13,027 nucleotides of DNA from Nitrososphaeria archaeon (GCA_050011875.1 JBEKIG010000029.1:1-13027), one strand, 5' to 3'; counted from the stretch's first letter, positions 1-11,855 are shown. Notes: generated by a model from the letters alone, not told the origin. Numbers and translations are program-made.

Positions 1-297
1 GATGAATCCATGGACGTCTGGGCCTGCCACGGCATGGCCAGCAGTTGGGGAATGATCGCCACCGGGCTCTTTGCCACCCTGGAGGTGAACGCGGCCGGGG
101 CCAACGGCCTGTTCTTCGGAAACCCGGGCCAACTGGCTTTGCAGGCCCTGGCTACGGTAGTCACCATGGCCTTCGCCTTCGGGATGACCTTTGTGATAGC
201 CAAAATCCTGGATATGAGCATCGGCCTCAAGGTCACCCCCATGGAAGAGGAGGTGGGCCTGGATATCAGCACCCACGGCGAGCGGGCCTATTCTTAA
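1..297 (+). CDS. amtB: Ammonium transporter (Amt family), C-terminal part; gene starts upstream of the window
   Basis: Frame 1 is open from base 1: DESMDVWACHG (Amt DD-L-V---HG motif), hydrophobic helices, and the conserved C-terminus EEEVGLDISTHGERAYS. TAA at 295-297. Next to a P-II gene once the insertion is removed. Confidence 0.93.
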   Translation, partial: DESMDVWACHGMASSWGMIATGLFATLEVNAAGANGLFFGNPGQLALQALATVVTMAFAFGMTFVIAKILDMSIGLKVTPMEEEVGLDISTHGERAYS

Positions 298-1994
298 GAG
301 CCTTCATGCATATCTTCTGCCACCTTTTCTCTTTTTGGCGCAAGTTCTGGATATTCTTGTGAAATAACTTTTCCGATATTGGCCGTAATTTCTTTGTTTC
401 CTTCTAAGGGGCTTGATAATAAGAAGTCTGCAAAAGCATATGAATCCCCAGTCCTTGCTGCAATATAACCTTCTACCGCTCCTAACTTCCCATATGCGTA
501 AAATCGGTATCCCTTGGGTTTTCCCCCAAGCTCTTGAATGTAAATCCCATATCGTTTCCCCATTTCGTCTTTACCGCCAAATAGCAGATGGATAATTTTT
601 TTCTTTTCCTCAAAGGGTAATTTTTCAAAAGGCACACCTGACCTTAAATAATCTTCCTTTTGCCTCAGGATAAGCTTTGCCCACATCCCCCGCTCAGTCT
701 CTATTTCCTTATCAGTAGGCAATGAATTTAATCGTAATAGAATTGAATCAATTTCTTCCTTTATATTTGTGGCTTTATCCTCTAAATCATTCCATTCTGG
801 TTTAATTCTCTTTCTGATTTTGATACCATCATCTTCATCTTCACATTCTTTTAGCATCGAAAGTAAGTTTTTAATTCTTTTCTCGGTAGCTTTAAGTTCA
901 CCTTGTTTAGATTTAAGCTTTATCCTAAGGTCTTCTGCCACCTTCCCAAGTGGGTTTCCATTAAAAACAGCCTCCCGCAAACTTGCTTTTCTGCCAAGCA
1001 CCGAAAGTAATTCATCTAAGACAGCTTTTTCCAGTGCATCGGCATTTACGTGGTATCTACGTTTGCAACCTTGGTAGGGTTTATAGTACCTTGTTCCTTT
1101 TTTATTTGATGTTCCAGTTAAGGCGAAGCCGCTATCCGTATCGAAAATTAAACGTGAGAAAAGGTATTGATGTTTTTGCGTCTTATGGTCATAAGTTCTA
1201 CGGGCTTCACATTTCCTCCTAATTGCAATAATTGTCTCCTTGGAAAGAAGGGGAGGAATGTTTAATGTATGTGTTTCATCAATATTAAAGTCTTCATCTT
1301 TAAAATGAATAGACCAATTATCCCCGGAACGATAGCATACTATTTTATGAAGATTTGGGCCATTCATCCCAAATCGTTCGCCAAGCTGTTTCCATGAGTA
1401 ATTCTCTTCAAGGTAGAGTCTGGCAGCTTCATTTATTATGGCTTGCTTCTTTTCGTCAATTTCCCAAGCCAGAGTGACCTTATTCCAAATCCGGCCAAAG
1501 GGCTTCTTTCCACAAGAAGGGCGGCCATCTTTAGCCCGTTTAACTCGGTTAATGGCCGACTTATACTTTTGCTGTTTTGCAAAGAATTCTTGAATTTCAA
1601 CACCCATACCAAGGATAAGGCAGGAATTTGGATTATATAAGTTATGCTCCATGGTTCCTTCAAAAAATCTTATCCCCAAATTCTGTAAAATCTTTGTATA
1701 TTGTTTTGATTTCGCATTATCCCGTGACCATCTTGATAAATCCGCAACCATGATTGCGTTAAATTTCTTTTCCTTAGCGTCCTGCATTAGCTGTTCTAAG
1801 ATTTTGCGCTCATAGTTTTGTGTGGCATGTTCATGTCCCTCATACCATTTGTAAATTCTGCCATTAAAACTTTGTATCGCCTGGAGAAGTTGCTCCTTTT
1901 GGGTTCGCAAGCTTTCACCTTGTTTAGCCTGTTGCTCTGTTGATACACGAATTAGAGGGGCAAACAACAAGCTTGTATTATCTTCCTGTTTCAT
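294..1994 (-). CDS. Large serine recombinase (integrase), 566 aa in the integrated state
   Basis: IRVSTEQQ catalytic Ser motif, DLSRWSRD, KPFG start of the recombinase domain, degenerate zinc-ribbon region (YLFSRLIFDTDSG...RYYKP) and a coiled coil. RBS AAGGGG upstream. Confidence 0.95.
   Translation of the reverse strand: MKQEDNTSLLFAPLIRVSTEQQAKQGESLRTQKEQLLQAIQSFNGRIYKWYEGHEHATQNYERKILEQLMQDAKEKKFNAIMVADLSRWSRDNAKSKQYTKILQNLGIRFFEGTMEHNLYNPNSCLILGMGVEIQEFFAKQQKYKSAINRVKRAKDGRPSCGKKPFGRIWNKVTLAWEIDEKKQAIINEAARLYLEENYSWKQLGERFGMNGPNLHKIVCYRSGDNWSIHFKDEDFNIDETHTLNIPPLLSKETIIAIRRKCEARRTYDHKTQKHQYLFSRLIFDTDSGFALTGTSNKKGTRYYKPYQGCKRRYHVNADALEKAVLDELLSVLGRKASLREAVFNGNPLGKVAEDLRIKLKSKQGELKATEKRIKNLLSMLKECEDEDDGIKIRKRIKPEWNDLEDKATNIKEEIDSILLRLNSLPTDKEIETERGMWAKLILRQKEDYLRSGVPFEKLPFEEKKKIIHLLFGGKDEMGKRYGIYIQELGGKPKGYRFYAYGKLGAVEGYIAARTGDSYAFADFLLSSPLEGNKEITANIGKVISQEYPELAPKREKVAEDMHEGS
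298..326. other. Left attachment junction: GAGC core plus attP arm TGCATATCTTCTGCCACCTT (307-326)
   Basis: Reverse complement of 307-326 (AAGGTGGCAGAAGATATGCA) matches 8940-8959 (AAGGTGGAAGAACATATGCA) at 18/20. Confidence 0.85.
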
Positions 1995-2038
1995 TAAAAT
2001 ATCCCCTTAAATTAAGCAATTGTTGACGTAGTTTAAGG

Positions 2039-2329
2039 TTATGTTGATTCTGATTCGCCTTCTTTCAGAGGAAACCTCTTTGCATTCGTAAGGTATTCTT
2101 CTAAATCATCTTCATCAACAAGTATTCTTTTTCCCAACTTTATGACTGGGAAGGGAACGTTGCCACGGTTAACCCAACTTCTGAAAGTCCCCTGACTGAT
2201 ACGTAAAACCTTTGAGACTTCTTCTACTGTCAGATACTTCTTGTTTAGTATAGATTTGTCTTGCAAGGCGTTAGCCAAATCCTTAAGTGGGGTTTCCCTA
2301 TCTGATTGACCAAGCTTATCACCTAACAT
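2039..2329 (-). CDS. HTH_17/excisionase-like DNA-binding protein, candidate directionality factor or regulator
   Basis: KYLTVEEVSKVLRISQGTFRSWVNRGNVPFPVIKLGKRILVDEDDLEEYL is a typical excisionase-family HTH. ATG at 2329 lies 2 nt after the upstream stop; the ORF-track start at 2377 is the alternative. Confidence 0.85.
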   Translation of the reverse strand: MLGDKLGQSDRETPLKDLANALQDKSILNKKYLTVEEVSKVLRISQGTFRSWVNRGNVPFPVIKLGKRILVDEDDLEEYLTNAKRFPLKEGESEST

Positions 2330-2331
2330 TT

Positions 2332-3006
2332 CTATAAGCTCGCCATTAGAATGTTTTTTATAGTTGTCGGATACCATTGATTTTTACCCCTCTTAGTTCT
2401 AATACCACGGGTCTTAAATTTCTCTCCAATAGCCTGCAAAGTGTACCCCCTTCCTCTTAATTCCTTTGCTAATTTGATAACCTCTTGTTCAGGCAAGAAC
2501 GGAATTAACTCGCTACCTTCTATCTTGTAGCCGAACGGGATATGACCCACGTGCTCACCGTTTTCAATTTTCCATTTCAATGCATCACTTGTTCTCTCTC
2601 CTATTATACCCCGTTCCATTTCAGCAATTCCCGCTATGAGGGTGAAAAAAAACCTTCCCAAAGGGGACTTAGTATCTAATCTCTCATTGATGCTATGGAA
2701 TCCAACCCCACACTTATCAAGCTCGCTTGTCACCTCCAAGGCGTCTATAGTTGACCTGAATGCCCTATCAAGCTTGTATACCACGATTGCCCCAATTTCC
2801 TTATTCCGGGCCAGATGAAGAATTTTATTTATTCCTGGCCGATTCAGGTTCTTTGCAGATAGGCCAGCATCGGTAAAAATCTCCAAAAGCTCAAAATCGT
2901 TTAGCTCACAGTAAGCTTTAATCTTGGCTTCTTGGTTTTCCAGGCTAACACCTTCCCTGGCCTGTTCCTCAGTTGATACCCTAACATACCCCACAGCTTT
3001 TTTCAT
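2332..3006 (-). CDS. Short serine recombinase, 224 aa (catalytic domain plus recombinase-type DNA-binding domain)
   Basis: GYVRVSTEEQ, VVYKLDRAFRS, IAEMERGIIGERT, then IPFGY...QWYPTTIKNIL. RBS AAGGAG. Confidence 0.93.
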   Translation of the reverse strand: MKKAVGYVRVSTEEQAREGVSLENQEAKIKAYCELNDFELLEIFTDAGLSAKNLNRPGINKILHLARNKEIGAIVVYKLDRAFRSTIDALEVTSELDKCGVGFHSINERLDTKSPLGRFFFTLIAGIAEMERGIIGERTSDALKWKIENGEHVGHIPFGYKIEGSELIPFLPEQEVIKLAKELRGRGYTLQAIGEKFKTRGIRTKRGKNQWYPTTIKNILMASL

Positions 3007-3035
3007 CTAATTTGCTCCTTGACCTTTTTTCTCTG

Positions 3036-3064
3036 TATATATGTCTGTTTGCGTTGCATGTCAA
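3036..3064 (-). promoter_or_regulatory. Candidate sigma70 promoter for the recombinase-HTH-integrase operon
   Basis: Minus strand TTGACA (3064-3059), 17 nt, TATATA (3041-3036), about 30 nt upstream of the ATG at 3006. Confidence 0.65.
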
Positions 3065-3072
3065 GCTTTTTG

Positions 3073-3096
3073 TATAGAAACCGAACGGTTTTTATA
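3073..3096. repeat. Palindrome TATAGAAACCG-AA-CGGTTTTTATA, candidate crossover/binding site for the short serine recombinase
   Basis: 11-bp arms with 10/11 symmetry around a 2-bp centre, immediately upstream of the recombinase promoter. Confidence 0.55.
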
Positions 3097-3217
3097 AATT
3101 AACTGGTTTCGGTGCTAAAATGGATAACCCCCAATCTTCTAAAGAGACAGATTACCATCAAAATTATCTATGAAGACAGCGACGCCCTGTGGTAAAATTC
3201 ATATTGAGGTGGATAAT

Positions 3218-3409
3218 ATGTCTGAAAAATGGGCTGTAGCCTTTGAATGTGACCTCAGCAAAGGGGTATGTGTACTGGCAAAGAAAAATGCCGGGGAGGG
3301 TGAGGTTGCCCTGTTTGACTCCAAGGAAGAAGCGGAAGAATGAGTCAACTCAAGTGGAGAGATAGATTCAGAGCTATGGGATATAAACTATGTGAAATTT
3401 GACGTTTAA
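3218..3409 (+). pseudogene. Small 63-codon gene with an in-frame TGA at codon 42 (3341-3343)
   Basis: RBS GAGGTGG, ATG 3218, MSEKWAVAFECDLSKGVCVLAKKNAGEGEVALFDSKEEAEE*VNSSGEIDSELWDINYVKFDV. Its partial second copy at 4140-4200 differs mostly at synonymous positions. Confidence 0.6.
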
Positions 3410-3498
3410 GTGAGAGTACAGCTTCGCAGCTAACTTGCTGGGATTGTGGACTTTTTTTTAGGAAAAGCAGTAAAAACAACCTGGGTAATGAGGGAATT

Positions 3499-4134
3499 AT
3501 GGGAACCATAATCGAAAACTTAAAGACTCTGAACGCAAGGGAACGATTCTATGTTATTAGATATGCGTTGGGCATCACAGAATTTAAATTGGATACGAAG
3601 TTTCGTGAACAACTTGATAAGTTGTTAGAATTAAGAATTCATCGTGATGCCTTTGTAGCAATGGATTATACTATTGATTGGGTATACGCAAGCTTGAAAT
3701 GGGCAAAGGGTGAACAAGACGTTTACGATAAAGCTGATATGGTACAATTGAATGAAAAAGGGCATGATATTGACTTGTTAGTTGCATATGAGGATGATGT
3801 GAATGATAAGTTAACGCACATTATTTTTATTGAAGCTAAAGGTGTGACACCATGGAAAACTGCCGAGATGAAACCAAAGGTTGAACGACTGAAACTTTTG
3901 TTTCATGATAATAGGGAGCAAGCTGTCCCTCATTTGGTTCTCTTATCACCTAATCAGCCAACGCAATTAGACAAAAAAATACTTGCCTCATGGATGCTTA
4001 AAAATAACGGAGATTATTCATGGATGAAGCTTGATATCCAACCGGGATTGAAGGGTGTAATGCGCTGCGGCGGCGAAAAAAATGAAAGTAATTGCAACGG
4101 CAATTGCTGGAGATTATACGATAGGCAATATTAG
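3499..4134 (+). CDS. Putative PD-(D/E)XK-superfamily nuclease
   Basis: HDIDLLVAY...HIIFIEAKG fits D-x(n)-E-x-K, with a downstream beta strand PHLVLLSP. RBS GAGGG. Confidence 0.7.
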   Translation: MGTIIENLKTLNARERFYVIRYALGITEFKLDTKFREQLDKLLELRIHRDAFVAMDYTIDWVYASLKWAKGEQDVYDKADMVQLNEKGHDIDLLVAYEDDVNDKLTHIIFIEAKGVTPWKTAEMKPKVERLKLLFHDNREQAVPHLVLLSPNQPTQLDKKILASWMLKNNGDYSWMKLDIQPGLKGVMRCGGEKNESNCNGNCWRLYDRQY

Positions 4135-4139
4135 ATATG

Positions 4140-4200
4140 TGCGACCTGAGCAAAGGGGTGTGTGTCCTGGCAAGGAAAGACGCCGGAGAAGGTGAGGTTG
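4140..4200 (+). repeat. Diverged 61-bp direct repeat of 3248-3308 (gene fragment)
   Basis: 52/61 identical; translates as CDLSKGVCVLARKDAGEGEV versus CDLSKGVCVLAKKNAGEGEV. Confidence 0.9.
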
Positions 4201-4463
4201 GGGAGAAGTCTCCGGTCACCCGAAGGGTAGGTGGACTACAGTTCAGAAGATTAAGCCAGGGGATTATCTTCTGGCCTATCTGACTAAAATTTCTCGTCTT
4301 GTGGGAATCTTGGAAGTGGTTTCAGACCCCTACTATTATGACGATGACAAAAATCGAATTTGGTAAGATGGTATATACCCTTGCCGTCTAAGAGTAAAAA
4401 TCATAACAAGTCTTACTCCGCTGAATTGGAACGGCTGTTTCCGGGATAAAAGGAGGAAATAAG

Positions 4464-4934
4464 ATGTTAAAGAAAGTGATTATGTTATTGGGAATTTTGT
4501 TAATGGGTTGGGCATCAGTTTCTTATTGTCAGAACGTTGGTGAGAATGCTGGGATAATAACTTATCCGCCAGAGAATACGGAAATGAATATATTTGTGCA
4601 ACTTGTAGCTAAAGCGTGTTATACTCAGTTGGATACCTTTTTAGCTGCTTTGAAAAAACCTAAGGAAGCGGGTTATCAAATTACGTTTACTAAGTTTAAA
4701 AGAACGAATAAGTATAAACGTAATCTTGGGGGGGAAGATTATTCTGTGATTGAGTATGGCTCCACTTTAGAGTGTTTTTATCCAAATGATAAACCCCCAT
4801 TCACACGAGTAATTTCATTTACTAGTTTTACGGTAGCATATATTCAGCGTGGTAATTCTTGGTACGGGAGTGTTATTGCTGGGGATGTTAAGGATTCAAC
4901 GGGTTCAATTACGAACGTGTATGGGAGGTATTAA
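4464..4934 (+). CDS. Hypothetical exported protein
   Basis: Strong RBS AAAGGAGG; N-terminus MLKKVIMLLGILLMGWASVSYC resembles a signal peptide; no recognisable domain. Confidence 0.75.
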   Translation: MLKKVIMLLGILLMGWASVSYCQNVGENAGIITYPPENTEMNIFVQLVAKACYTQLDTFLAALKKPKEAGYQITFTKFKRTNKYKRNLGGEDYSVIEYGSTLECFYPNDKPPFTRVISFTSFTVAYIQRGNSWYGSVIAGDVKDSTGSITNVYGRY

Positions 4935-5428
4935 TGGATTGTAATTGTTGGGAATGTGAGCATAAAAGGGAGCTTTGGCTTAATAAGTTTGAGAAGTTGT
5001 GGGAATTGACAATATTTGGTTCAGGAATTTGAAAAACTGGATGGAAACTTAACAGCTCTTCATATCTCTGCTGGCAGCCCTGCTCGTCTTCATGATACCG
5101 CAAGATGATTCCCTTATCCCACAAATAGGAAGGCGATGTCAATAGGTTTGCAAGAGGCTCAGACGTGAGAAATCCGGGTGGGGTTTTAACCTTCCCCTTA
5201 GGCATAATTTTTATACTGTAAATCGCACTTAAAACGCTCAGAATGGCACGATTTGATGAAGGGCAAGGGCAAGGGTAGGAGGGAAAACCATTGAAAGCTG
5301 ACCTGAAAAGTGGTTTAATAATATTAGGAAGTGTCTTCCGCCAAGATGCACAATCTATCTTCCTTCAGATATGAGTATCTCTTAAAACCTATAATAACGA
5401 CAAAGCCGTACTTGGAATTGACAATGTG

Positions 5429-6310
5429 ATGAAGCAGTACAAAAGATTAAACTATTCTGAAATGAAAAGAAGGATATTAAACCTTCAACAGCTTTCTAAA
5501 CGCAACGCAGAGCCTGGAGAATATCTGCCCATATTAAAATTGATGTTTACTAAGATGCCTCTACATGGAACAACAATAAAAAATGATTTTATATACCATG
5601 CCAGAATGAATCTTAATGGAAAGCTATTTGACAATCTTGGCGAACTAAAGTATCCGTTAAAAGAGGATATTAAAGCTAAAGGTCGGCTAAACGACATTGG
5701 TGAAAATATCCTATATGTAGCCCTTGGTGAGCTTGAAACATTAATTGAGGTTGCGATACAATTTAATAAGCTATTTACAATATCAACAATTAGGCATAAT
5801 CTTAAAGAAGGCATTTTCATTCCACTTGGAATAATAGACAGAGAATATAGCGTTATTCCACAATCAAAAAGAGAAGAACTATTAATAACTTATCTGAATT
5901 CCGAAATCACAAAAATCGTATCAAATCCTATTGAATATAATTCAACAATAGCCATATCACATTTTATCCTAAATCAACCTGTAAAAAATTATAAGTTAGG
6001 AAGGCTTGCTGGTATAATCTATCCAAGCGTGAAAAGCAAAACGATGACAAATGTAAGAACAAATAATATTGCAATTCCGCCTGAGATATTCGATTTATGC
6101 TTTGTTATTGAGAGAGTTAATGTATACTGTCTTACATATGAAAGCACTCATTATCAATTAAACGAAGTAAATAAGGTGATTCAAATTAATAGTGATGGGA
6201 CATTAAAATGGTTTTATGATTTCGCTGAGATGAAAGATAGGATTTCAAAGGGTCTTCTTGTGGAAAGGGGAACATGTAATAATCTTATAGGCGTGGAGAA
6301 ATACATATAA
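5429..6310 (+). CDS. RES-domain protein (NAD+-acting, ADP-ribosyltransferase-like fold)
   Basis: IYHAR...LKYP...KGRLN (R)...LYVALGELETLIEV (E)...GIIYPSV (S)...NIAI follow RES motif order. Start at ATG 5429 or GTG 5426. Confidence 0.8.
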   Translation: MKQYKRLNYSEMKRRILNLQQLSKRNAEPGEYLPILKLMFTKMPLHGTTIKNDFIYHARMNLNGKLFDNLGELKYPLKEDIKAKGRLNDIGENILYVALGELETLIEVAIQFNKLFTISTIRHNLKEGIFIPLGIIDREYSVIPQSKREELLITYLNSEITKIVSNPIEYNSTIAISHFILNQPVKNYKLGRLAGIIYPSVKSKTMTNVRTNNIAIPPEIFDLCFVIERVNVYCLTYESTHYQLNEVNKVIQINSDGTLKWFYDFAEMKDRISKGLLVERGTCNNLIGVEKYI

Positions 6311-6404
6311 CCATATATCCATAAGCACCTTTCACCTTTTTAGAAAATGGAGTAAATCAATCACACAAGATATACTGCAATAACAGTAGCCAACTTCGAA
6401 AAGC

Positions 6405-6953
6405 TTAAAGCTTATCGGAATCTCCTTTATCTTTCGCACGATAAAATAGTTTTAGGAGATTTTTGTCCATACCTAAACCTCTAAGCTCAGCAAATTTTAA
6501 TTCAATTATAGTTGTTGCAAAAATCCAAGTAGTTTCATAATCATTGGTTAGGGAATCCTTTCTTTCATTATCAAGTGGAGGTTGACCATATTTTTCAATC
6601 AACATTTTCTTTAGGTCATCAAAATTAGATAAGGATACCCTTTTGTCCAAGAGAGTTATGTTTATTCTTTTTAGAACTCTACTATAATCATCCATCACAA
6701 ATCTAACGCTAAACGGTAGGCCATTTAAATAAAAATTATTTATTCCAACGGAAGCATAAACGTTATCGTCGTACTTTTCACCTTTATCGAGTCGTATGGC
6801 CTCCCCTTTAAATGCCTCAAGTATCTGTGATTCTGTCATCCCCCACCGGGCTTGCCTCCAACCCTCAACATCCTTTGGGGGTTCTGCGACCGCTAATGAG
6901 ACAGACAGAATAACCAGTCCTATTGCCGCCAAAAGAATCTTCTTCCCAAGCAA
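6405..6953 (-). CDS. Hypothetical exported protein
   Basis: Signal-peptide-like KKILLAAIGLVILSVSLAVA, then GWRQARWGMTESQI and LIEKYGQP, reminiscent of small periplasmic proteins. TTG start is uncertain. Confidence 0.75.
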   Translation of the reverse strand: MLGKKILLAAIGLVILSVSLAVAEPPKDVEGWRQARWGMTESQILEAFKGEAIRLDKGEKYDDNVYASVGINNFYLNGLPFSVRFVMDDYSRVLKRINITLLDKRVSLSNFDDLKKMLIEKYGQPPLDNERKDSLTNDYETTWIFATTIIELKFAELRGLGMDKNLLKLFYRAKDKGDSDKL

Positions 6954-7231
6954 TGTAGATACCCAAGTAGGCTTTCCCTTTGTCTCCTTTGATAATTTTG
7001 GTTCTAATATGCCCGAATGGACACATAAAGCAATCAGGGTTTTCCTGAATTTGGCATGGGGAATTGATTAGATTTGGAAAAGAGGTAAGAAAGCCTGTGG
7101 GGCTTTCCATTCCCATGTAACCCCATCCGATGATTTCCACATCTGTCAATTTCACGGCCTGGGTTCGAAAATCTACGCAATTGTTATAACCAAAATAGCC
7201 TTATAATTCTGCAAATGGCCCGTTTGGGTTC

Positions 7232-7468
7232 GGGGAAGGGTAATTGGTTAAGTTAAGGGGAAGCTCGCCAAATTCGCCGGTTAAACGTGCATTCACTATA
7301 GCGATAAGGTAACTTTGCAACCTCAGATTACGGAATAAGATTTTCAAGCTACGGTGTAATGGGATAAGTGACTATTATTATTAGAAAAGAGTCCTTTTGT
7401 CACCAACCGTCTCAAATCACCAAATTAAGCAGGCAAAGGTCAACATTTAGAACAACTTACCCTTCCCC
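7232..7468. repeat. 18-bp inverted repeats bracketing about 200 bp of non-coding DNA
   Basis: GGGGAAGGGTAATTGGTT (7232-7249) versus AACAACTTACCCTTCCCC (7451-7468): 16/18 complementary, outer 12 perfect. Confidence 0.55.
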
Positions 7469-7657
7469 CACCCCCTCATTAGAAAGGAATGCCTCATTGC
7501 GTTAGTTAGCTGGCAACGATATGATTACAATTGCTAAAATACAAAATATATTTTGATATGAGAACAATCTATGATAGTATGCAATGAAGATAACATAGCA
7601 TAATCAACAAGTTGTTGGTCTGCATTGTGCTAATACGACAGTTTGTGATTACAGTTT

Positions 7658-7691
7658 GACCTTTTGGTTCCTTTTTATAGGAAACAAAGTC
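7658..7691. other. Hairpin just downstream of the rep-like gene (terminator or origin element)
   Basis: TTTGGTTCCT (7663-7672) pairs with AGGAAACAAA (7679-7688) at 9/10, with outer GAC/GTC. Confidence 0.35.
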
Positions 7692-7716
7692 GTTCACCAT
7701 ATTATCAATATTTACA

Positions 7717-8715
7717 TCACAATGAATCAGGCATGACATAGTGTTTACCAGTGATAGGAATGAAAGATGTCTTTGATAGCTTACTCATAAATGCATTTGT
7801 AAGTAGTTCATGTTCAACTATAAACCTCCAATAATTAGGTACACCCCTATCTTTATCTTTTAGTCTTTCAACCTGCTTGATGAATTCAAAGTCATGTTCC
7901 CTATGAGTAATACCACGAACCCATTGTGCAATATGTTTCTCAAATAACCTCCCACCCCATGGCCTTCTCAGATTAGCTCGTTTAATTTCCTGTTTGTTCT
8001 TTTTTACAAAGTAGTTTGTTAGCATTCTTGAGTCAATATAGGCGAATATGAAAAATTTCTTCAAATCTATGCCATCTATATTGCTTAAAGGTAGTGACAG
8101 CCCTAACCGACTTATTATTTTCCGTTTTAGTAAAAGCTCCATTCTGACAAACTCAGGATTATCAAATGGCTTAGGATAAGTCCTTGTACCTTTAGTGGCT
8201 TTCCTAATATCTGTTGTATAGAATGTGTCCTTGATATTGAATGACTTTTGTTTTTGGTGTCTGAGATACAAGTGTTTGTTGAGGAATTCATTAAAGTCTT
8301 GAAGGTCTCTTGTGTAAAAATCAAAGGATAGCTCAACTTGACTTAATTTGTGAAAGATAGAAAACTTATTGAAATAACCATGAAATAAGTCTAATACCTC
8401 TTTGCTTGGGTCATGAATCTTTATTACTGTTGTAGGTATCAAATTACCTTCAAACCTCATATCATAGAACAATTGAATACAAATATTTTTATCTTGATAC
8501 TCCTTATTCCTTCTAAATTTACCTCTTACATGAAAATTAGTTTTTGAAAGAATGAAACCATTTACATTTAATAGGTCACAAATTGGCGTATGATACCTTA
8601 GGTGAATATCTGAAAGGGTTAGCCAATCTATACTGGTCTTAAGGGTAAAATCAGGAATGTAAGAATCGTCTATATTATTATAGTGAGTTGGGGGATTAAA
8701 TACTTCAAGTGTCAT
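7717..8715 (-). CDS. Rep_trans-like rolling-circle replication initiator or MOBT-like relaxase (divergent)
   Basis: Motifs in the order expected for Rep_trans: SIDWLTLS, LSQVELSFDF (cf. RxDxAxD), TRTYPK (cf. RxYxK catalytic Tyr), FVRMELLLK (cf. WxRxExxL). Basic protein of 332 aa. Confidence 0.6.
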   Translation of the reverse strand: MTLEVFNPPTHYNNIDDSYIPDFTLKTSIDWLTLSDIHLRYHTPICDLLNVNGFILSKTNFHVRGKFRRNKEYQDKNICIQLFYDMRFEGNLIPTTVIKIHDPSKEVLDLFHGYFNKFSIFHKLSQVELSFDFYTRDLQDFNEFLNKHLYLRHQKQKSFNIKDTFYTTDIRKATKGTRTYPKPFDNPEFVRMELLLKRKIISRLGLSLPLSNIDGIDLKKFFIFAYIDSRMLTNYFVKKNKQEIKRANLRRPWGGRLFEKHIAQWVRGITHREHDFEFIKQVERLKDKDRGVPNYWRFIVEHELLTNAFMSKLSKTSFIPITGKHYVMPDSL

Positions 8716-8750
8716 AACGTGTTAAATTTCCATCACATTTGAGATTGAAT

Positions 8751-8829
8751 ACATATTAATGGAAAAAGGCTAACGTGAAAGCTTGACATGGAACGCAAAG
8801 GGACATATTAATGGAAAAAGGCCAACGTG
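8751..8829 (+). repeat. Two 27-bp direct repeats ACATATTAATGGAAAAAGGC(T/C)AACGTG
   Basis: 8751-8777 and 8803-8829, 26/27 identical, 52-bp period, directly upstream of the rep-like ATG. Confidence 0.9.
8783..8811 (+). promoter_or_regulatory. Candidate outward-facing sigma70 promoter directed at glnK
   Basis: TTGACA (8783-8788), 17 nt, TATTAA(T); lies in a 31-bp box 28/31 identical to the reverse complement of 3039-3069. Confidence 0.6.
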
Positions 8830-8877
8830 TACACATATTTTTTTGGTTAGGGAATGGGTGCAAGGATTTTCTTTGTT

Positions 8878-8961
8878 CTATCTGCGGTGAAACTGTCTTG
8901 CGTATACTTCCCCGTTCAGCATAAAGGGGATTGGTTTTGAAGGTGGAAGAACATATGCAAG
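8878..8961 (-). other. Detached 27-codon 3' end of the integrase gene, joined in frame only in the excised circle
   Basis: Joining the two GAGC cores gives ...GAA GGC TCC CTT GCA TAT..., translated ...EGS-LAYVLPPSKPIPFMLNGEVYARQFHRR-TAG (stop at 8880-8878). Confidence 0.75.
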
Positions 8962-8966
8962 GGAGC
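8940..8966. other. Right attachment junction: attP arm (8940-8959) plus GAGC core (8963-8966)
   Basis: The reconstructed attP, arm-AGGGA-GC-CTTCA-arm, is symmetric about the GC dinucleotide, which lies within the shared GAGC. Confidence 0.85.
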
Positions 8967-9019
8967 GGTCAGCCAAATTACCGTTTCTTCTATAGATCCT
9001 CAATAAGAGAGAACCGAAA

Positions 9020-9406
9020 ATGCTAAAAAAGATCGAAGCCATCATTCGGGAAGACAAGCTCAACGATGTCAAGGAAGCCTTGAAGGAAATGGGCATCGTG
9101 GGCCTGAACCTCTTCGAAATTCGCGGCCACGGCCGCCAGGGAGGCATCAGCCTGACGGGCCGTACAGGCAGCTACCGGGTCGATTTGCTGCCCAAGATCC
9201 AGATCAACATCGTCTTGAGCGAACACAACCTGGAAGATACCATTCAGACCATCCTCAGGTCCGCCTATACCGGCATGGCCGGCGACGGCCTGATCTTCGT
9301 CTACCCGGTGGAGGAAGTGATCCGCATCCGCACCCGGGAGCGGGGGCACGACGCGGTGATGTATCCCGGGGACATTGACGAAAGGAAGGAGGTCACCGCC
9401 AAATAG
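9020..9406 (+). CDS. glnK: P-II family nitrogen regulatory protein (GlnK-like), with a C-terminal extension
   Basis: KKIEAIIR, RGHGRQ, T-loop Tyr in GSYRVDLLPK, TG-AGDGLIFV-PVEEVIRIRT; linked to amt. Confidence 0.93.
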   Translation: MLKKIEAIIREDKLNDVKEALKEMGIVGLNLFEIRGHGRQGGISLTGRTGSYRVDLLPKIQINIVLSEHNLEDTIQTILRSAYTGMAGDGLIFVYPVEEVIRIRTRERGHDAVMYPGDIDERKEVTAK

Positions 9407-9585
9407 TTTCCCCCCTTCATTCCGGCCATCCCCCTTCTGGCAGGGTGGTGGGGCGGCCTCCCTAAACTATTGCATTTCTGGTTTTTCCATGACAAAATAA
9501 ATTGATTTCTCGCGGCCAGGGAGGCTATCCTTCCTGGCCTGCATTTCGCTGGGGCGTCTCCCCGGCCTTTTGGGGCAAGAGACCT

Positions 9586-9990
9586 ATGTCAACCGAAGCG
9601 GTGATCTTCGCCTGTCAGCAAGCGGTGCCGGACCCGGAGGCCCTGCTGGTCTCCTTGGGCAAGGGGGGAGACCGGTGGCGGGTGCTTTCGGAGCCTTGCA
9701 GCAGTAAAGTGGAGGCCTTTCAGTTGCTCCGCGCCTTGGGAACTCCGGTGGACCTGGTATGGGTCATCGGCTGCGATAAGACCCTCTGCCGCTACCAGGA
9801 TGGCAGCCGCCGCCTGGAAGGCCGGGTGCAATATTCCCAGGGTTATCTGGAAGAAATCGGGCTGGAGTCGGGGCGGCTGGGCTATTCCCTGGTCACCCCG
9901 GGCGATGCCGCGGCCCTGGCCGGGATCGTCAAGGAAGTTAAGGCCCGTCTGCAGGCCCTGGGGCCAAGCCCCCTCAAGGCCAAGGTTTAG
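9586..9990 (+). CDS. mvhD: MvhD/FlpD-like (hydrogenase delta subunit family) 2Fe-2S protein
   Basis: IFAC...PCSSKV...VWVIGC-x4-CRYQDG...LEEIGLESGRL...LGPSPLK. ATG 9586 preferred over the ORF-track start at 9502. Confidence 0.85.
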   Translation: MSTEAVIFACQQAVPDPEALLVSLGKGGDRWRVLSEPCSSKVEAFQLLRALGTPVDLVWVIGCDKTLCRYQDGSRRLEGRVQYSQGYLEEIGLESGRLGYSLVTPGDAAALAGIVKEVKARLQALGPSPLKAKV

Positions 9991-10039
9991 GACTAATGCT
10001 GTTCATTTAAGGACCAGGAGCCGACGCGCAGTCATTTCC

Positions 10040-10142
10040 TTTGTCATTCTGAGGGAGTCGGGGGCGGCCACAGAATTTCTAAATACGAGATGCTTCGCTT
10101 CGCTCAGCATGACAAAAAAATGTGGGGTGGGCACTGCCCACC
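10040..10142. repeat. Intergenic palindromic repeat plus a REP-like hairpin
   Basis: TTTGTCATTCTGAG (10040-10053) pairs with CTCAGCATGACAAA (10103-10116) at 13/14; GTGG-GGTGGGCA-C-TGCCCACC at 10122-10142. Confidence 0.7.
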
Positions 10143-10211
10143 AATCCCATAGAAAAGAACCGCTTAAGTGAACCTTATTTTATTAAACTGTCTCATTTAG
10201 GAGAACTAGGG

Positions 10212-11645
10212 TTGCCTGCCAAATATCACATCCACATGCGCCGGGTGCCGCCCCGTTTCACCCCTCTGGCCAAAAGCACCGTGATGGACTGGGGCGAGGG
10301 CTGTCTCCGCTGCGCCCGCTGCGTCAAGGAAGACTGTCCGGTGGACGCTTACCGGAAGCGGGGTTTCGACCGGCAGCAGCTGGTGGACACCATCGATCAG
10401 GTCTGCCGCGACTGTTACCGCTGCGTCCAGGGTTGTCCCCGGGGGCTAGTCTTCAAGGCCATGAACCCCCAATACCGGCAGATGGGGGACGACTATTGGA
10501 CCCCGGAGATCATCGCGGTCACCTGGAGCCAGGCGGAAACCGGCAAGATCCCCGTTTCCGGAGCGGGCTATGGCGGGCCCTTTTCCGGGGAGGGCTTCGA
10601 CTCCTGCTGGACCGACATGTCGGAGATCGTCCGGCCCACCCGGGATGGCATCCACGGCCGGGAATATATCAGCACCTCCATCGACCTGGGCCGCAAACCC
10701 ATGTTTCTGGCCTTCAACGAACAACAGGAGATGCTGATCACCCCACCTCGCCTTTTGGAAATCCCTTTACCGGTGGTGCTGGCGGAACCATCCCGGAGCG
10801 CCGACCCGGCGCGGCTGCGTCAGATCATGGTGGCGGCCGCCCAAAACCTGGGCACCCTGGCGCTCTTGCACCGGAAAGACATCGGCGCCGACCTGGCCCC
10901 GGCCGCCTCTCGCCTGGTGCCCATCCTGTCGGCCAGAGAGCCTCTGAAGCAGGATGCGCCGCTGCTCAGCCAGGTGCCCGCGGTGGAGATCCCGGACCAT
11001 CCCGGGGTAATGGCCCAAATGGAGGCCATCAAGAAACGCTTCCCCCAATTGCTCGTCTGGATCAGGGTGCCGGCCGACGGCCAGGCCGCGGCGCGAGTGG
11101 CGGCCTTAGCCGCGGCGGGGGCCGAGGTTTTGCACCTGGCCGGCTCCGACAAGGCCCGGGGCCTCAAGGACGCCGGAACCGCGCACCTGAAGGACCTGGT
11201 GCGCGGCTGCCACCTGAAGCTGGTGGAAGACCGGTTGCGGGACGCCGTCACCTTGCTGGTCAGCGGCGGCATCGCTTTGGCGGAGCACGTGGCTAAGGTT
11301 ATCATCGCCGGCGCCGATGGGGTGATGGCCGACCTCTCCCTGCTCCTGGCCCTGGAATGCCGGCTGTGCCCCGAGTGTCCCGGCGGCGCTGATAAGAAGA
11401 ACCAACAGCCCTGCCCCATCGACCTGGGGAGCCTCAGCGTCCCGCGGGGGGCCCAGCGGATGGTCAACCTCCTGGGCGCCTGGAACAACCAGCTTCTGGA
11501 GGTCCTGGGCGCCATGGGCATGCGGGAGGTGCGCCGTCTGCGAGGGGAAGTGGGCCGGGCCATGTTCAAGGAGGACCTGGATAGAGAAATCTTTGCCCCG
11601 CTCTTCGCCCGGCCGGAGGGTGAAACCAGGAGGGTCGGCGAATAG
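10212..11645 (+). CDS. Ferredoxin-fused glutamate synthase FMN-binding-domain-like protein (degenerate barrel motifs)
   Basis: CLRCARC-x3-CP and CRDCYRC-x3-CP clusters; LLVSGGIALAEHVAKVIIAGADGV, CRLCPEC, EVLGAMGMREVRRLRG. TTG 10212 follows RBS AGGAGA. Confidence 0.85.
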   Translation: MPAKYHIHMRRVPPRFTPLAKSTVMDWGEGCLRCARCVKEDCPVDAYRKRGFDRQQLVDTIDQVCRDCYRCVQGCPRGLVFKAMNPQYRQMGDDYWTPEIIAVTWSQAETGKIPVSGAGYGGPFSGEGFDSCWTDMSEIVRPTRDGIHGREYISTSIDLGRKPMFLAFNEQQEMLITPPRLLEIPLPVVLAEPSRSADPARLRQIMVAAAQNLGTLALLHRKDIGADLAPAASRLVPILSAREPLKQDAPLLSQVPAVEIPDHPGVMAQMEAIKKRFPQLLVWIRVPADGQAAARVAALAAAGAEVLHLAGSDKARGLKDAGTAHLKDLVRGCHLKLVEDRLRDAVTLLVSGGIALAEHVAKVIIAGADGVMADLSLLLALECRLCPECPGGADKKNQQPCPIDLGSLSVPRGAQRMVNLLGAWNNQLLEVLGAMGMREVRRLRGEVGRAMFKEDLDREIFAPLFARPEGETRRVGE

Positions 11646-11657
11646 AAGGAGTTACCC

Positions 11658-11768
11658 GTAGGGCGGCCGTCCCTGGCCGCCTCTAAATGGCGGGCACGGA
11701 GGCCCGCCCCACCGAACCGATAACCGGTTTTCGGCGAAAGGCGAACGCAGGCTAAAACCTGCGGCTAC
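11658..11768. repeat. Cluster of GTAG-type REP-like hairpins
   Basis: GTAG-GGCGGCC-GTCCCT-GGCCGCC (11658-11681), inverted GGCGGGC-ACGGAG-GCCCGCC-CCAC (11689-11712) and CGCAGG-CTAAAA-CCTGCG-G-CTAC (11746-11768). Confidence 0.7.
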
Positions 11769-11855
11769 CACTTAAAAGCAAATGAACGCCAAACCACCCC
11801 GTGGCCGGTTCAAAGTTCAAAGTTAAATCGACTAAAATCAGAAAAAGACTAAAAA

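Follow-up and report, generated by a model that had tools for sequence, protein, structure and literature searches.

Large serine recombinases (LSRs) are prized as tools for the strict direction of the reactions they catalyze, generally ascribed to a directionality factor distinct from the enzyme; in canonical members attP lies outside the integrase gene. An attP embedded in a coding sequence has been described for several phages, summarized here from the portions of the reports available to us. In Myxococcus phage Mx8 the site lies inside the integrase coding sequence and integration makes a new 3' end (IntP becomes IntX), which, according to a review, alters the behaviour of the enzyme rather than inactivating it (PMC6070905). 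BPs-type mycobacteriophages also carry attP inside a gene, and integration removes a C-terminal peptide while host DNA adjoining the core supplies the stop codon (PMC9262239). For LSRs, the SPbeta-like Bacillus phage Goe14 has its attP (AAG) within the part of a sprA-like gene that codes for the C-terminus; integration into spoVK truncates the integrase by 131 aa and leaves a 97-aa open reading frame (ORF) at the other end, and in the authors' speculation integration would fall to the long form and excision to the short one (bioRxiv 10.1101/2021.11.22.469490). The serine integrase ORF165 of Psychrobacillus phage Perkons has its att core inside the ORF, so that the C-terminus is remodelled, at junctions confirmed by PCR (PMC13245101). 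Here we analyse a 13,027-nt stretch of DNA deposited as Nitrososphaeria archaeon (GCA_050011875.1, JBEKIG010000029.1:1-13027), hereafter the window, in which an 8.67-kb low-GC element (298-8966) parts the host genes amt and glnK. The element encodes an LSR, the integrase, whose gene contains attP 27 codons before its natural stop. We consider it likely that integration shortens this protein to 566 aa, that excision restores 593 aa and that the 27-residue tail acts in the free state.

The element starts directly past the amt stop, the insertion point lying 0-4 bp beyond the stop codon, and the GC content inside it is 0.29-0.45 versus 0.56-0.69 in the flanks, with a step at both ends. A GAGC core marks each end (Table 1). 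When the cores were joined by script, the best dyad centre of the rebuilt attP fell between G and C of GAGC, with 20/26 symmetrical positions as against at most 12/26 at any other centre in the stretch. An LSR attP is short (~50 bp), with imperfect dyad symmetry about a 2-bp crossover; the rebuilt site is of this kind, its symmetry being centred in the 4-bp identity GAGC, and it aligns base for base with the attP of the closest relative, locus L006. The initial annotation, made from the sequence of the window, had placed the junctions at GAGC; the dyad, the GC step, the L006 alignment and, in run X15, a unitig that stops at 301, an element contig that begins at 272 and a contig that connects 301 to 8995 without the element all bear this out. 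The uninterrupted state can be seen in genome G043, in which amt is followed after ~110 nt by a P-II gene 81% identical to that of the window. The amt gene of G043 ends at the same residue as the window amt (...HGERSYS*), with a C-terminus of the same length; the window retains the last 98 residues of this ammonium transporter. Because G043 has an uninterrupted amt-glnK pair, we take the adjacency of the two genes as the uninterrupted state and the amt stop as native host sequence.

The integrase gene lies at the element edge and reads outward across the junction into host DNA. It stops at the complement of 294-296 and amt at 295-297, one TTAA holding both stop codons. The ORF and stop coordinates thus agree with the initial annotation, which had the frame running across the attP arm and GAGC to a host TAA overlapping the amt stop, for a protein of 566 aa. 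Joining the cores takes the frame on via 8961-8881 to a TAG at 8880-8878, yielding 593 aa with exactly the tail that had been predicted, including FMLNG at codon 13 past the crossover. That annotation had further described integration and excision as swapping the C-terminus. The C-terminus does change, but by pure truncation: codon 566 reads TCT with the element integrated and TCC after excision, and because both encode Ser, integration removes 27 aa cleanly with no exchange of residues. In the integrated state an 89-aa ORF (8878-9147, minus strand) ends in the orphaned 27 tail codons and runs antisense over the glnK start; it is probably meaningless.

Relatives keep the length, the motif and the reading frame of the tail. 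The initial annotation had named a tail not conserved among relatives as grounds for refutation, and this check comes out in favour of its reading. Excised tails were rebuilt for 14 loci with both junctions and for the window, 15 in total. All 15 are open in frame for at least 16 codons (median 27), versus 5 of 30 reads in the other frames (median 5); for 27 open codons taken alone, we estimate a chance of ~0.16 in 38% GC DNA. The motif [FY]x[LIVM]xG occurs in frame in 13/15 tails, mostly after P, and in 2/30 reads of other frames. It sits 8-15 codons past the crossover, beyond the ~25-bp half-site, and its codons vary among elements (TTT/TTC, GGG/GGT/GGC/GGA, CTG/ATT/GTA). The tails of L024 and L025 differ by 6 synonymous and 2 non-synonymous codon changes and keep the stop position with different codons, TAA versus TGA. 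L045 and L051 differ by 8 synonymous and 11 non-synonymous changes, base differences falling 6/8/15 by codon position (15/29 at the third); shifted frames in the pair comparison give 1-2 synonymous versus 4-18 non-synonymous changes and internal stops. In L006, whose integrase is 75% identical to that of the window, the tail is equal in length and near-identical in its core. The rebuilt tails have endings such as ...FHRR, ...ATPQ and ...LPN, with no LAA-like tag, and the conserved part is internal. From these patterns we infer that the tail may well be translated and under selection.

Database proteins give a complementary picture. The strict form P[FY]x[LIVM]xG is found in the last 32 residues of 8/258 proteins. 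One of these, P0184, was dropped on inspection, its match being a conserved core strand, and seven carry the full tail (P0076, P0098, P0161, P0188, P0214, P0218, P0244). Because they carry it, these seven must have been called from attP-state DNA. Querying with the P0076 tail region retrieved P0076 itself only.

The layout extends well beyond the window. The clade is large: a protein search yielded 390 relatives, the 150 best database representatives all have E ≤ 6.5e-113, and 617 clusters lie at E ≤ 1e-30. Many relatives end in a near-identical ...RHAHHRQRLHQ, which in L006, L007, L009 and L012 is encoded just beyond a GC step; the ending ...HAHHRQRLHQ arises where a conserved yjbQ-like (UPF0047) gene is read out of frame. 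Integrase and yjbQ matches occur together in 45 of 73 genome loci, and in 42 of those 45 (all save L013, L071 and L075) a yjbQ-like half begins within 500 nt of the integrase end. The yjbQ-like gene in these 42 loci is always split at one codon boundary, ...LVLVN|AMHITAS..., the integrase running into its C-terminal half on the same strand in 18 and into the antisense of its N-terminal half in 24. The integrase stop lies 5-205 nt past the junction boundary in 42/42, host DNA completing the stop codon; for the antisense type the codon is TGA, finished off by host GTTGACC. Whichever way round the element is inserted, the clade keeps the within-gene layout, the yjbQ site having AA or TT at its centre, and across these loci a crossover inside the integrase gene is the normal layout of the whole clade. 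The central dinucleotide on the integrase strand is AA in L006 and TT in the antisense type, which looks like a flip of a near-palindromic attP. In nine loci (L024, L025, L027, L030, L031, L038, L043, L060 and L064) an intact yjbQ-like gene stands just upstream of the integrase, within the element, and looks like a replacement copy for the split host gene. The family is rare among viral contigs: 2 of 80 kept loci reach 37-41% identity, all others being LSRs of a generic kind, and neither a terminal repeat nor a circular form turned up among the viral contigs examined.

The window protein has a Resolvase-type catalytic domain with its serine nucleophile present (Pfam PF00239, 57.2 bits versus a cut-off of 23.3, E 2.6e-15), and R16, S18, R88, R91 and D92 are invariant in 33 homologues. 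Its sequence profile against the PDB, matching catalytic domains only, retrieved that of TP901-1 integrase (E 5e-13). Beyond the catalytic domain, Pfam gave no recombinase domain or other domain above cut-off for the window integrase; the zinc ribbon PF13408 reaches 19.3 bits against a cut-off of 25.3, and its region, which is covered by the fold match described next, has two distant cysteines only and no CxxC. The structure examined is the AlphaFold model of a 40% identical homologue, P0076, rather than of the window protein itself. This model (mean pLDDT 81.8) is confident to about residue 534 and falls below 50 over residues 535-603. Its alignments with the full-length integrases of SPbeta, Bxb1 and phiC31 span 466-620 columns, and long helices occupy residues 349-452, so that the recombinase domain and coiled coil of LSRs are present in the homologue; its best Foldseek matches are 9dxd_A (E 7.9e-17), 9iu2_A (9.0e-12), 9rah_A (3.2e-11) and 4kis_C (1.1e-7). 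Because window residue 520 aligns to P0076 residue 529, the 566-aa form should retain the confidently folded part and lose only the end of a low-confidence C-terminal stretch. The tail motif resembles a strand, [FY]x[IL]xG, that belongs to the core's last beta-sheet, a likeness we record as an observation only.

What might a peptide that only the free element can encode be for? In the model we propose, attP x attB recombination at GAGC would leave a 566-aa integrase closed by the host TAA, and excision would rebuild the 593-aa gene. The tail could not be needed for excision, because the integrated gene cannot encode it, and for this reason it would have to act while the element is free. It would do so as a short motif, mostly PFxLxG, ending a poorly conserved stretch that is mostly unfolded in the homologue model. 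Directly upstream of the integrase lies the gene for a helix-turn-helix (HTH) protein of the excisionase family (TIGR01764, 42.5 bits versus a cut-off of 28.8; PHROG excisionase families; 83% identical in L006), a candidate directionality factor or regulator. The genes for a 224-aa serine recombinase, the HTH protein and the integrase follow one another head to tail on the minus strand, where 1-3300 contains no terminator-like site, and to judge from gene order the HTH protein and the integrase may be co-transcribed. Because they appear to be so, the mere presence of a directionality factor could not set direction; the tail might instead serve as a state variable that supplies the directional information. 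The full-length enzyme, made from the circle only, would be biased to integration, and the tail-less enzyme, made from the integrated copy only, would keep all its folded domains and excise together with the HTH protein. This division of labour between a long, integrating form and a short form that excises jointly with the HTH protein is the likeliest of the mechanisms weighed, and we put it forward tentatively. A role of the tail as a stability tag or partner-docking site seems unlikely. More generally, we speculate, with some doubt, that the clade sets direction partly by the topology of the integrase gene: the circle-only PFxLxG peptide would license integration or block the excisionase-family protein, and the tail-less enzyme would be excisive. 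One lead is a preprint on phiC31 integrase, in whose available text the extreme C-terminus contributes to the interface with its directionality factor.

A simpler account is that the overlap is a by-product of compaction, attP having come to overlap the integrase 3' end, with the 27 codons a tolerated read-through and both forms behaving alike. A run of 27 open codons might by itself arise by chance, symmetry between the attP half-sites already restricts what the first 6-8 tail codons can be, and the tail is modelled as disordered, with no structural role visible. Moreover, the window/L006 pair has no synonymous excess (0 synonymous versus 8 non-synonymous changes), and the non-coding DNA past the stop is equally conserved, for which reason this pair cannot separate coding from regulatory constraint. 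Such a by-product would hardly lead to open tails in every rebuilt case against one in six control frames (15/15 versus 5/30), to a motif placed outside the half-site in 13/15, or to coding-type substitutions and a stop position maintained by different stop codons in two pairs, and we regard it as improbable. The stretch might also be a DNA or RNA signal, such as an origin, a nick site or the promoter region of the gene for a 332-aa protein near the right end, that is open by coincidence: the ~250 nt from attP to the start of that gene, including the part past the stop, are more conserved between the window and L006 than coding regions (78-82% DNA identity), and direct repeats adjoin them. A nucleic acid signal is nevertheless very improbable in our estimation, given that the amino-acid motif is kept across distant relatives while its codons vary, that third-position changes dominate in L045/L051 and that the other frames are closed. 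Several further points weigh against our model as a whole. Two of the 15 rebuilt tails (L038, L055) are without the motif, and the position of several rebuilt junctions is accurate to a base or so only. A crossover at palindromic GC, as implied by the dyad centre, is uncommon among LSRs, with GA or AG within GAGC as further possibilities. Finally, the co-transcription and the role of the HTH protein as a directionality factor are both deduced solely from gene order.

Whether the element moves at present bears on the same question, and part of the evidence comes from aligning the assembled contigs of four runs, not raw reads, to the window, assembly being apt to drop rare forms. An artefact of assembly or binning could in principle create a false junction, and the bin to which the window was assigned has a GC content of 40.8% against flanks of 62-69%. 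This explanation is exceedingly remote: single contigs cross the junctions in X6 (13,736 nt) and X8 (10,349 nt), the junction is identical in 4/4 metagenome loci (JGI contigs up to 26.5 kb, 99.95-100% identity), so that the arrangement was assembled independently, and mis-binning concerns genome assignment rather than contig continuity. The same constancy suits a fixed, inactive remnant, in which the element is immobile, the 566-aa gene a leftover and the truncation without present role. At least 97% of sampled words were present in 20 of the 23 runs listed; these 20 come from 17 studies, 19 of them are marked as potential sources of this DNA, and since the element is near-identical across these 20 runs it may be fixed and inactive. 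The exact 566-aa protein occurs on 62 contigs, and its 90% cluster is without any 593-aa member. No contig with the attP back-join expected of the circle was found in the four runs, which is not evidence that the circle is absent because the data were assembled contigs. The X15 contig that connects 301 to 8995 skips 8,693 bases, the intervening sequence not being known; this sole element-free contig appears to derive from a diverged strain, its joint lying at 8995 instead of 8967 and 52 mismatches being present in a 682-nt contig that covers 8995-9590. Against a remnant, the integrase ORF and all backbone genes are intact, the backbone is common to L006, and the orphaned tail is still open with its motif kept. 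We hold an inactive remnant to be rather unlikely, and it would be compatible with a family-level reading of the conserved tail. Of the five members of the 90% cluster, one is the 566-aa protein, three are 177-aa proteins unrelated to it and one is P0124, a 686-aa protein in which 152 YbhB-like residues are fused to integrase residues 33-566 via a shared KEQLLQA. P0124 is an assembly chimera, and it is because of this chimera that unrelated proteins enter the integrase's cluster.

The window makes up all of contig C29 in a metagenome bin (G000), whose GC content contrasts with the 56-69% of the flanks. A search for the P-II protein in five close relatives of the bin gave no match, and a DNA search of 41 genomes related to the bin for an empty site gave nothing useful. 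The closest P-II genes belong to Desulfobaccales-like genomes (81-87% identity to that of the window). The contig was probably mis-binned by the composition of the element, its true host being a high-GC peat bacterium as far as sequence comparison can tell; the empty-site searches among bin relatives were fruitless because the 40.8% GC bin is not where the contig belongs.

The backbone common to the window and L006 consists of the 332-aa protein, the 224-aa recombinase, the HTH protein and the integrase, while the element middle differs; the element also carries cargo genes. The 224-aa recombinase matches positions 87-309 of 651 of the phrog_95 profile, and its gene overlaps that of the HTH protein by 46 nt. 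Because it is 84% identical in L006, it is probably functional and not a fragment. The 332-aa protein had no Pfam (including PF02486), PHROG or NCBIfam match; its ESM Atlas neighbours include Rep_trans clusters (TM 0.52-0.58), and as a lead only it is possibly a Rep_trans-like rolling-circle initiator or relaxase. A 42-nt inverted repeat (3028-3069 / 8778-8819, 81% complementary) has one copy upstream of the gene for the 224-aa recombinase and another close to the right end, where it faces outward to glnK within a 52-nt duplication that is missing from L006. A promoter scan of 8600-9100 found none; a TTGACA-17-TATTAA seen by eye in the 42-nt repeat was not called by the scan. A 61-nt direct repeat (3248-3308 / 4140-4200, 85% identical) brackets a 211-aa ORF at 3499-4134, each copy coding for the end of a small acidic peptide. 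Farther out in the flank, summed contig depth reaches 357-1977 at 10006-10440 and 10081-11824 versus ~15-80 elsewhere, several contigs connect ~10141-10145 to ~11661-11689, thereby bypassing the gene for a 507-aa Fe-S protein, and many loose contig ends fall at 10081, 10115 and 11807. This pattern suggests that a repeat or variable cassette flanks the Fe-S protein gene.

Table 1. Positions in the window of the host genes, junctions and element features
Feature	Position	Strand	Evidence or remarks
Host amt, 3' end	1..297	+	Stop TAA 295-297; Pfam PF00909, E 2.8e-26, profile positions 302-399 of 399
attL	275..325	.	Host half-site then element half-site (P' arm), coding for ...VAEDMHEG
Integrase (LSR), integrated form, 566 aa	294..1994	-	Ends ...KVAEDMHEGS; stop in host DNA
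GAGC core, integrase-side junction (attL), left end of element	298..301	.	Core match, dyad, X15 contig breaks
Excisionase-family HTH protein, 112 aa	2039..2377	-	Pfam HTH_17, E 2.7e-13; directly upstream of int
Serine recombinase, 224 aa	2332..3006	-	Catalytic domain and start of recombinase domain; Pfam Resolvase, E 1.5e-39; partial Recombinase match
Backbone protein, 332 aa	7717..8715	-	75% identical in L006
Two 27-nt direct repeats (family D12)	8751..8829	.	96% identity; between tail-coding stretch and 332-aa gene; one copy in L006
Orphaned integrase 3' end	8878..8961	-	27 codons (8961-8881) and TAG (8880-8878); in ORF only in excised circle
GAGC core, far junction (attR), right end of element	8963..8966	.	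Core match, dyad
Host P-II gene (glnK-type)	9020..9406	+	Pfam P-II, E 6.8e-27; parted from amt by element

What would follow from such an arrangement? If our model is correct, it describes a natural LSR clade whose own C-terminus is rewritten by the reaction it catalyzes, and the clade would offer an existing system in which to ask if an LSR is able to sense the state of its element. There is also a practical consequence for annotation: clade integrases called from integrated copies carry host-derived ends, such as ...HAHHRQRLHQ, and anyone mining LSRs for genome engineering should not mistake sequences of this kind for the native protein. Our literature search, which did not extend to supplements, found no paper on the clade or on yjbQ as an LSR target and, in the portions of the sources available, no assay of long versus short LSR forms. 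Supplementary Table 1 of PMC10083194, with 6,207 LSR-att predictions, may include clade members with within-ORF att sites. The initial annotation knew of no characterized LSR case; this still holds in that no assay of the two forms was found, whereas the available reports on Goe14 and Perkons put LSR cases in print.

How does the locus compare with these systems? It shares its overall fold, as judged on the homologue model, with the canonical LSRs SPbeta SprA, Bxb1, phiC31 and the Listeria prophage integrase, and likewise has a short dyad attP; it differs in having a catalytic domain only above the Pfam cut-off and no CxxC pairs in the zinc-ribbon region. The BPs type, as far as its available description goes, splits a repressor, uses a tyrosine integrase and removes an ssrA-like degradation tag, while in the window it is the integrase that is split. 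We considered the locus as a case of BPs-type integration-dependent immunity and set this aside on the split integrase and on tails without an LAA-like end. Mx8 Int is a phage tyrosine recombinase, in contrast to the LSR of a small non-phage element that undergoes a clean 27-aa truncation. In Perkons an 18-bp in-frame core produces a 667-aa fusion to floA according to the text available (PMC13245101), whereas the window integrase is truncated. Goe14 is a Firmicute phage that loses 131 aa versus 27 here; the 89-aa ORF of the window is comparable to the 97-aa ORF left over in that phage, and the accessible part of the Goe14 report mentions no family-wide conservation, tail motif or assay. What is new here appears, from the loci compared, to be a whole environmental LSR clade with attP inside the integrase gene and a conserved tail that can be encoded by the free form only.

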